64,000 nucleotides of DNA from TPA_inf: Saccharomyces (Eukaryota). The position numbers and the translations under genes were made by a program. Shown here piece by piece: positions 25,029-26,462 of this stretch. The stretch spans positions 32,001 through 96,000 of the forward strand of contig BK006935.2 in assembly GCA_000146045.2 (NCBI GenBank), read 5' to 3'. Numbering within the stretch: the stretch's first letter is position 1; every line of letters begins with the position of its first letter. The notes below the pieces were generated by a model. That model was given only the letters and a program-made list of their open reading frames with translations, was not told the DNA's origin and did no database searches.

Positions 25029-25385
25029 TCATGATGATGCCGGACCCTTCCCAGTTGACTTCTTAGTGGTCAATTGTAGGCCATGCCATCTGGAAATATC
25101 GTCCCTCAAAATTCTGTTCACCAGCTGGTGCTGCTTGATGAGACTCAGTCCGTTGAACTTCTTGCTTGTTATGTTGATAGCAAACATGGATCCGCAGCCA
25201 CCGGAAACGTCTTGCACTTTACACACTTCAGGTTCCAGTTCCTGTTGTAGTTTATCGGTGATCATCTTCTCCTCCGGAGTCATTGCCATCTGCGTTGAGT
25301 ACCAAAGCTTTGAGCCCGTCAGAATCCTTGGCCACCGGACATGCTTCACAGATATAGAACGTAGCATGGTCTGTGGGAGCTTCAT
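25029..25385 (-). CDS. BOL3: Mitochondrial BolA-like protein, 118 aa
   Basis: 118-aa ORF with a BolA fold signature (...FAINITSKKFNGLSLIKQHQLVNRIL...) and an N-terminal presequence. This is YAL046C/AIM1. Confidence 0.88.
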   Translation of the reverse strand: MKLPQTMLRSISVKHVRWPRILTGSKLWYSTQMAMTPEEKMITDKLQQELEPEVCKVQDVSGGCGSMFAINITSKKFNGLSLIKQHQLVNRILRDDISRWHGLQLTTKKSTGKGPASS

Positions 25386-25517
25386 TTCTATGTTTTACCT
25401 TCTCTTTTCGCTTTTATGGTTCTCAGTGACCAAATAAAGAAACTTATATATGTTCCGGAATGACGAATCAAAAAGAGAATAGCATCGTTAGCAGCAAACG
25501 AAAGTGGAAAGAGAATA

Positions 25518-25850
25518 ATGTTCAAGAGAGCAATGAGCACAGATGGTCCCGTGGCACGTACCATCCTGAAGAGACTGGAATGCGGCTTTCCAGATTACAA
25601 GAACTTTGCGTTTGGCCTCTACAACGATTCTCACAAGCATAAGGGCCATGCTGGTGTACAGGGAAATGTCTCTGCTGAGACACATTTCCGGATTGAGATG
25701 GTCAGTAAAAAGTTCGAAGGCCTGAAACTTCCACAACGCCATCGTATGGTTTATTCCCTCTTGCAAGACGAGATGGCTCAGGCGAACGGTATCCATGCTT
25801 TACAATTGTCACTAAAGACCCCACAGGAGTATGAATCCAAAGCGAAATAG
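25518..25850 (+). CDS. BOL1: Mitochondrial BolA-like protein, 110 aa
   Basis: 110-aa ORF with a BolA signature (...[27 protein letters not shown]...). This is YAL044W-A. Confidence 0.88.
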
Positions 25851-25949
25851 AATGCATAAGCATAAGTGTACACGTTGAGTTTATTGTTTTATTTCCCCTA
25901 CATATATATACATATATATGAAATTACTTTACGTACGTATAAGCTTTGT

Positions 25950-26462
25950 TCAGTCATCATGAACCAGTGTCTTTTCGTACTGTTCTAAGGACATTAGACC
26001 CTCGACCTGTTCCACATTAACGCCCTCACCAAGCTTCATTTTGACTAGCCAGCCGTCACCCATAGGATCTTCGTTCACCACACCTGGATTTTCCTCAAGA
26101 TTAGTGTTAATTTCCTCTACGGTACCATCGGCAGGCTGGTAGATCTCGGAGGCTGACTTGACGGACTCAATGGACCCTAGCGACTCACCTTGGGCAATCT
26201 CAGTGCCCACTTCTGGCAACTCAACATAGGTAGCGTCCCCTAAGGCATCAGTGGCGTATTTTGTAATTCCGACAAAGGCAGTCTTGTCCTGATGCACAGC
26301 TATCCACTCATGTTGGGAAGTGTACCTCACGGCTTGAGGTCCTTGGGATGAGTACAAAAATGGTAGTTTATTCTTGTTTAGGGCATTGCCGGAGCTGTTT
26401 CTCAAAAACAATTTGCTCACAGTGGGCATGCGGGTGGTCCATAGTCTAGTAGTGCGTAACAT
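25950..26462 (-). CDS. GCV3: Glycine cleavage system H protein (lipoyl carrier), 170 aa
   Basis: Lipoyl-attachment region ...ESVKSASEIY... and a mitochondrial presequence MLRTTRLWTTRMP. The ORF caller's call extends 7 codons upstream to an in-frame ATG (26481-26483); the recognised start is the ATG at 26460-26462. Confidence 0.9.
   Translation of the reverse strand: MLRTTRLWTTRMPTVSKLFLRNSSGNALNKNKLPFLYSSQGPQAVRYTSQHEWIAVHQDKTAFVGITKYATDALGDATYVELPEVGTEIAQGESLGSIESVKSASEIYQPADGTVEEINTNLEENPGVVNEDPMGDGWLVKMKLGEGVNVEQVEGLMSLEQYEKTLVHDD

Follow-up and report, generated by a model that had tools for sequence, protein, structure and literature searches.

The BOL3-BOL1-GCV3 neighborhood of Saccharomyces cerevisiae: an old, unusually tight gene order in which GCV3 appears to be controlled from its own side

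The window analyzed here, a stretch of 64,000 nucleotides (contig BK006935.2, positions 32,001 to 96,000), lies on the left arm of chromosome I of Saccharomyces cerevisiae and carries the genes BOL3, BOL1, and GCV3 side by side (Table 1). The two first genes code for mitochondrial BolA proteins and are transcribed head to head, and GCV3, which codes for the H protein of the glycine cleavage system, lies tail to tail with BOL1. All three genes are already annotated, with products and positions, and their biochemistry has been published; what concerns us is their arrangement, which is real, unusually tight, and old, and in which we found nothing to indicate more than ordinary conserved gene order.

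Gene content of the locus

In a preliminary description made from the letters alone, two small BolA-fold open reading frames (ORFs) had been placed divergently across a 132-bp region, and the three genes had been named BOL3, BOL1, and GCV3. The ORF list, the sequence, and Pfam confirm the divergent pair, and the names are borne out by Pfam and by exact matches to strain S288C. Both BolA proteins matched PF01722 (Bol3 with an E value of 1e-11 and 45.3 bits, Bol1 with 9e-27 and 93.7 bits, against a cutoff of 25.7), Gcv3 matched GCV_H, PF01597 (8e-48 and 161.8 bits, cutoff of 22.2), and its translation contains the ESVK lipoyl-lysine motif. An exact-sequence lookup returned Bol3p (Aim1p), Bol1p, and the glycine decarboxylase subunit H of S. 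cerevisiae S288C, all three identical to the translations of the window. The accepted start of GCV3 is at 26462, and its longest ORF extends to 26483. The flanking ORFs were assigned by Pfam to a Mto2_bdg-containing coiled-coil protein (SPC72) and a Symplekin/PTA1 protein. An ORF of 102 amino acids (aa) antisense to BOL1 (25488-25796, minus strand) extends into the 132-bp spacer; we take it to be the dubious ORF YAL045C.

Table 1 Features of the BOL3-BOL1-GCV3 locus, in coordinates of the window
Feature	Position	Strand	Description
BOL3 (YAL046C, AIM1)	25029-25385	-	118 aa; mitochondrial BOLA3-type BolA protein; ORF list and Pfam
BOL3-BOL1 head-to-head spacer	25386-25517		132 bp from start codon to start codon; presumed shared promoter/nucleosome-free region
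TATA-like CTTATATA and palindrome TTCCGGAA, spacer center	25443-25460		Motif scan; putative function
BOL1 (YAL044W-A)	25518-25850	+	110 aa; mitochondrial BOLA1-type BolA protein; ORF list and Pfam
BOL1-GCV3 tail-to-tail gap	25851-25949		99 bp from stop codon to stop codon; AT-rich with TATATA runs
GCV3 (YAL044C)	25950-26462	-	170 aa; glycine cleavage H protein, lipoyl carrier; ESVK lipoyl-lysine motif
GCV3 upstream region	26463-26694	-	Includes the PTA1 3' end; two TGACTC sites

The two BolA genes and their link to Gcv3

Bol3 and Bol1 share 41% identity over just 44 residues. The best match of Bol3 among solved structures was human BOLA3 (2NCL, E value of 5e-13, compared with 8.5e-6 for BOLA1), while the top structural matches of Bol1 were UVI31+ of Chlamydomonas, plant BolA1, mouse 1V60, and human BOLA1 5LCI (E values from 3e-18 to 5e-10), with BOLA3 absent among them. 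Residues C64 (in the SGGCGSM loop) and H101 (in WHGLQL) of Bol3 were invariant in 19 yeast homologs. Bol3 is accordingly of the BOLA3 type and Bol1 of the BOLA1 type, and the two genes are ancient paralogs that were juxtaposed secondarily. A local inverted tandem duplication would explain why two members of one Pfam family are adjacent, but the low identity, the closer relationship of each protein to a different human or plant subfamily, and the fact that the orthologs are unlinked in Candida albicans, Wickerhamomyces ciferrii, Cyberlindnera, and 38 other fungal contigs all speak against it. We have rejected this origin and give it next to no credence. The word paralogs, which had been applied to the pair beforehand, is therefore right in the sense of ancient BOLA1/BOLA3-type paralogs and wrong if read as a local duplication.

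The functions of the three proteins are known from published work. The roles of Bol1 and Bol3 overlap to a large extent, both proteins helping to place [4Fe-4S] clusters in lipoate synthase and succinate dehydrogenase (Uzarska et al. 2016; Melber et al. 2016, eLife), with Grx5 and Nfu1 described among their partners, and the protein levels of Bol1 and Bol3 respond differently to partner proteins (Melber et al. 2016), which points to posttranscriptional control. Lip3 moves the lipoyl group from the H protein Gcv3 to the E2 subunits of pyruvate dehydrogenase (PDH) and α-ketoglutarate dehydrogenase (KGD) (Pietikainen et al. 2021, BMC Biol). The products of the window are these very proteins, BolA factors and lipoyl-relaying H protein alike (the latter by exact sequence match and GCV_H domain), with no difference at the protein level. 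The help of BolA proteins to lipoate synthase and the lipoyl role of Gcv3, both invoked in the preliminary description, are consequently supported by published work; the link between them is real though indirect, as it is the enzyme modifying Gcv3, and not Gcv3 itself, that the BolA proteins serve. Neither the chromosomal adjacency, nor a shared promoter, nor Gcv3 is mentioned in Uzarska et al. 2016 or Melber et al. 2016, and under the systematic gene names the literature yielded just a core-gene-set preprint and unrelated lists.

The BOL1-BOL3 spacer

Short divergent spacers of this kind also separate YGL221C/YGL220W and YDR512C/YDR513W, which we take to be NIF3/BOL2-FRA2 and EMI1/GRX2, respectively. 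In a genome survey of S. cerevisiae, YAL046C/YAL044W-A was one of the five most closely spaced of the 1318 divergent gene pairs, only 63 of which were separated by under 200 bases, and the five tightest include BOL3/BOL1 (133 bases), YGL221C/YGL220W (82), and YDR512C/YDR513W (77). The top five hold all three yeast BolA genes and one member of the glutaredoxin family, which is a partner family of the BolA proteins. This may just be a property of small housekeeping genes with minimal promoters.

The S. cerevisiae spacer has a G+C content of 34%. It contains a TATA-like element, CTTATATA, at 25443-25450, which reads TATATAAG towards BOL3, and two bases after it the palindrome TTCCGGAA, at 25453-25460; the distance from these elements to either ATG is about 58 to 75 bp. 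Transcription in yeast usually starts 40 to 120 bp downstream of the TATA element, and for an element in the middle of this spacer that would imply either very short 5' leaders or starts past the first ATG, and given that the element is only ~65 bp away, the true start codons and presequences of Bol3 and Bol1 may merit a check. Bol3 has a second in-frame methionine at codon 7 (first ATG at 25383-25385, M7 at 25365-25367) and Bol1 at codon 6 (25518-25520 and 25533-25535), and homolog clusters include members of 112 aa and 105 aa, as some strain or species annotations begin at Bol3 M7 or Bol1 M6.

Across nine species the spacer varied from 74 to 394 bp and was 132 bp or less in four. None of ~28 yeast factor consensus sequences scanned gave a site common to these spacers, and no 6-mer or 7-mer was common to more of the nine than in shuffled controls, although this is a weak test because the species compared are distant. 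Neither CTTATATA nor TTCCGGAA was kept as a k-mer across the nine species. A pattern alike by eye in S. cerevisiae and Lachancea thermotolerans, TTCGTC..CCGGAA, was rejected, as it had no family-wide signal. The locus therefore shows the geometry of a shared promoter, with two start codons head to head at a short distance, but not a cis element conserved across species in these comparisons of distant yeasts. No paper linking BOL1 and BOL3 with a bidirectional promoter was found in the literature searched. Coexpression of both genes from a shared promoter is likely, judging from this layout.

GCV3 has its own upstream region and meets BOL1 at the 3' end

The earlier identification of GCV3 as the next gene is correct as far as adjacency goes, but it does not extend to the 132-bp region. 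GCV3 is convergent with BOL1 and its upstream region is on the far side, by the 3' end of PTA1, so the spacer can serve BOL3 and BOL1 only. Two TGACTC sites (Bas1/Gcn4-type) are found upstream of GCV3, at 26554-26559 and 26570-26575 (-113 and -97 from the ATG), against 0.076 expected for that length in the window, while the BOL spacer has none. At least one TGACTC is present within 400 bp upstream of GCV3 in six of nine yeasts, whether or not the BolA genes are adjacent. In a recent study, deletion of BAS1 led to loss of factor occupancy at GCV1, GCV2, and GCV3. From its own upstream sites and this Bas1 dependence, GCV3 seems to belong to the glycine/one-carbon regulon and to have a promoter of its own.

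The stop-to-stop gap between BOL1 and GCV3 ranges from 24 to 132 bp in six species. Convergent yeast mRNAs closer than a 200-bp cutoff commonly form 3' duplexes, 281 of which were found experimentally (Gilet et al. 2019, MBE). BOL1 and GCV3 resemble those pairs in being convergent, in their conserved orientation, and in a gap that is below the cutoff in all six species. By position, the 3' untranslated regions of the two genes probably overlap within the gap, and GCV3 is physically coupled to the BolA genes at this end only. The 3' region of GCV3 also contains UGUAUAUA (25905-25912, minus strand), which fits the Puf3-type motif UGUAHAUA and is inside a TATATA-rich stretch. This stretch might just as well be a normal polyadenylation efficiency element.

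Distribution of the arrangement among yeasts

We used the GCV3 and Bol3 homologs as synteny anchors, examined the surrounding DNA, and checked identities by tblastn with the S. cerevisiae proteins. The order GCV3(+)-BOL1(-)-BOL3(+), with the same relative orientation as in the window, was found in Kluyveromyces lactis, Eremothecium gossypii, L. thermotolerans, and Saccharomycodes ludwigii, and the trio is also consistent with the locus tags in the homolog lists for seven Lachancea species, Eremothecium sinecaudum, and a second strain of Torulaspora globosa. When metagenomes were scanned with a Bol3 alignment, 80 loci were obtained, in which the trio was seen in S. cerevisiae itself (the only representative of its genus), on two contigs of a Torulaspora-like yeast, and in one other yeast, with the pair alone at one further locus; the remaining 75 showed neither Bol1 nor Gcv3, 38 of them with more than 2 kb of sequence upstream of Bol3. 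The adjacency, whose conservation had been proposed as a check, is then not specific to S. cerevisiae. Wherever BOL3 was seen in Saccharomycetaceae or Saccharomycodaceae, the locus had kept the BOL1/BOL3 pair.

The four species with the trio are also collinear over about ten genes, PTA1-SAM-PDE-GCV3-BOL1-BOL3-eIF2A-like-SPC72-proteasome-GEM1 (PDE, phosphodiesterase). Conservation of the trio is not above background, because the unrelated genes that flank it are collinear to the same degree in these species. The yeasts that predate the whole-genome duplication have SAM-domain and cyclic-nucleotide phosphodiesterase genes between PTA1 and GCV3 (about 3100-7600 in loci L001-L003 and L005) and, between BOL3 and SPC72, an eIF2A-like gene. 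The S. cerevisiae copy of the block (compare 26463-26694) lacks all three, a loss that is as expected after that duplication.

Two yeasts have the trio broken. In Vanderwaltozyma polyspora, the BOL1/BOL3 pair is beside SPC72 and GEM1, and GCV3 is on another scaffold (Kpol_538p38 versus Kpol_1049p4). The stretch of ~5 kb between the phosphodiesterase gene and BOL1 in this species (L010, 2142-7269), the place occupied by GCV3 in other species, had no called gene, tRNA, or GCV3 remnant by tblastn, and its only ORFs of at least 120 aa were one of 143 aa with a TTG start (3410-3841, minus strand) and one overlapping BOL1. GCV3 of T. globosa CBS 764 is directly followed, in the position expected for the BolA genes, by an old-yellow-enzyme-like gene and a gene for a hAT-family transposase (L004, 8959-15265); as the tags of the second strain imply an intact trio, this break may be a strain-level, transposon-linked rearrangement.

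In other budding yeasts, only parts of the arrangement were found. Cyberlindnera fabianii has GCV3 and BOL1 tail to tail, without BOL3 and with both flanks different. In W. ciferrii and C. albicans, the neighbors of BOL3 are eIF2A-like, SPC72-like, and proteasome genes, and BOL1 and GCV3 are both absent from its vicinity. Kuraishia has SAM-PDE-GCV3 with no BolA gene there, GCV3 adjoins a synaptobrevin gene in Yamadazyma, and in Nadsonia a BOL1-type gene is 6.5 kb from GCV3. The window itself carries an SNC1-like synaptobrevin gene with an intron (55286-55746, plus strand), 29 kb from GCV3; its ortholog (L006, 13839-14334; L007, 8721-9056; L009, 16143-16487), besides adjoining GCV3 in Yamadazyma, adjoins BOL1 in Nadsonia and is 5 kb from BOL1 in Cyberlindnera. 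These positions suggest that GCV3~BOL1~SNC is an old linkage group of the budding yeasts.

Origin and persistence of the trio

These partial arrangements, BOL3 alone in C. albicans and Wickerhamomyces and GCV3-BOL1 alone in Cyberlindnera, indicate that a rearrangement created the head-to-head pair, and on the gene orders compared a stepwise origin would be the simplest history. BOL3 would have been seated in the old PTA1...eIF2A-like-SPC72-proteasome block, while GCV3 and BOL1 would already have been tail to tail in an older yeast ancestor, as a separate convergent pair. Before Saccharomycetaceae and Saccharomycodaceae diverged, a rearrangement would then have set GCV3-BOL1 beside BOL3. From that point BOL1 and BOL3 would be expressed from one compact promoter, probably one nucleosome-free region that has the TATA-like element at its center, which would make broad coexpression of the two likely. 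GCV3 would be driven separately through its Bas1/Gcn4-type upstream region, meeting BOL1 only at the 3' ends. Persistence may need little else, since spacers of 132 and 99 bp would leave almost no room for a viable breakpoint, in a chromosome block that appears generally stable. A neutral model in the literature predicts retention from a short spacer alone, and with such spacers it makes the trio nearly unbreakable. We consider this combination the probable explanation of the locus: known genes, a compact and probably shared BOL1/BOL3 promoter derived from an old rearrangement, an independent GCV3, and retention largely by tiny spacers. A functional cluster of three genes under selection need not be invoked.

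Various observations weigh against this account. The functional match among the three genes is close, and the neighborhood was built in two separate steps, each joining related genes, which is somewhat above a casual expectation of chance. The spacer is extreme in length within S. cerevisiae and is also short (74 to 126 bp) in three other lineages, and the coexpression that we assign to it is itself a reading of the gene layout. In V. polyspora, BOL1 and BOL3 survived genome duplication and gene loss together, while GCV3 and the eIF2A-like gene did not, and this retention fits selection on a shared promoter. For the neutral component in particular, BOL1 and BOL3 stayed on one chromosome copy after the duplication in both S. 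cerevisiae and V. polyspora, with neighbors that were sorted differently, and GCV3-BOL1 outlived both flanks in Cyberlindnera; these cases are suggestive, though they are few data points. A rough estimate of the chance that three of ~20 lipoylation and late Fe-S genes form a run of three among ~5900 genes is of the order of 2e-4, which is not compelling, because many functional sets could be chosen after the fact.

Selection could act on the BolA pair alone, with a bidirectional promoter that balances two partly redundant Fe-S targeting factors and GCV3 as an incidental neighbor. Its place in the five tightest of 1318 divergent pairs, its retention in V. polyspora while GCV3 and the eIF2A-like neighbor are on the other copy and wherever BOL3 was seen in both families, and the largely overlapping functions of Bol1 and Bol3 are all in its favor. 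However, the nine spacers have neither a motif in common above the shuffled level nor a common factor site, their length is not fixed, the pairing is absent from most fungi, the neutral model predicts the same retention from the short spacer, and the differing responses of the Bol1 and Bol3 protein levels to partner proteins (Melber et al. 2016) point to control after transcription. We regard selection on the pair as a plausible but less likely explanation. A broader version, which we consider unlikely, makes all three genes a selected lipoylation mini-cluster, coregulated through shared chromatin or through the 3' overlap of BOL1 and GCV3. The documented pathway link, the conservation of the trio in at least seven lineages, a GCV3-BOL1 gap that always falls in the range of 3' mRNA duplexes, and the survival of this adjacency in Cyberlindnera amid different flanks can be cited for it. 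Set against these are the upstream TGACTC sites of GCV3, which have no counterpart in the BOL spacer, the place of GCV3 among the Bas1-controlled glycine/one-carbon genes, the equal conservation of the unrelated flanking genes, the separation of GCV3 from BOL3 or BOL1 in V. polyspora, Kuraishia, Yamadazyma, Sugiyamaella, and C. albicans, and the location of the other lipoylation genes LIP2, LIP3, and LIP5 outside this neighborhood. Equally improbable, in our judgment, is the specific form in which the BolA pair and the H protein are kept as a lipoylation/Fe-S coexpression module by the minimal bidirectional promoter together with overlapping BOL1/GCV3 3' ends; if true, it would also explain why the five tightest pairs include all three BolA genes and a glutaredoxin gene. 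The functionally coherent trio of the preliminary description can be kept as neighboring genes of one pathway, linked indirectly, but not as a functional cluster: no regulatory input common to all members was found, GCV3 being convergent, Bas1 dependent, and controlled from separate sites, and the adjacency does not exceed background synteny, with collinear flanks and a trio that is split in V. polyspora and broken or absent elsewhere (GCV3-BOL1 in Cyberlindnera is the exception).

Histone gene pairs are the classic divergent pairs of yeast, with a compact shared promoter and demonstrated shared regulation. BOL1/BOL3 resembles them in the head-to-head orientation, the very short spacer, the related products, and the TATA-like element about midway, but its shared regulation is presumptive, its spacer has no conserved element, and the spacer length is variable. 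GAL1-10-7, DAL, and BIO are metabolic gene clusters of yeast. Like them, BOL3-BOL1-GCV3 consists of three neighbors in one pathway; unlike in them, no common regulator site was found, one gene belongs to another regulon, the core pathway enzymes are encoded elsewhere, and its conservation is no higher than that of the unrelated flanks.

Implications

What the comparison adds to the existing annotation is that the BolA pair is a secondary juxtaposition of ancient paralogs, which can be dated before the split of Saccharomycetaceae and Saccharomycodaceae, and that GCV3 appears to be regulated from its own side. The significance of the locus is small beyond this bookkeeping. If balanced expression of Bol1 and Bol3 needs the 132-bp promoter, the pair would be a small example of gene-order selection for Fe-S and lipoylation factors and would be relevant for yeast models of BOLA3-deficiency and lipoylation-deficiency phenotypes.

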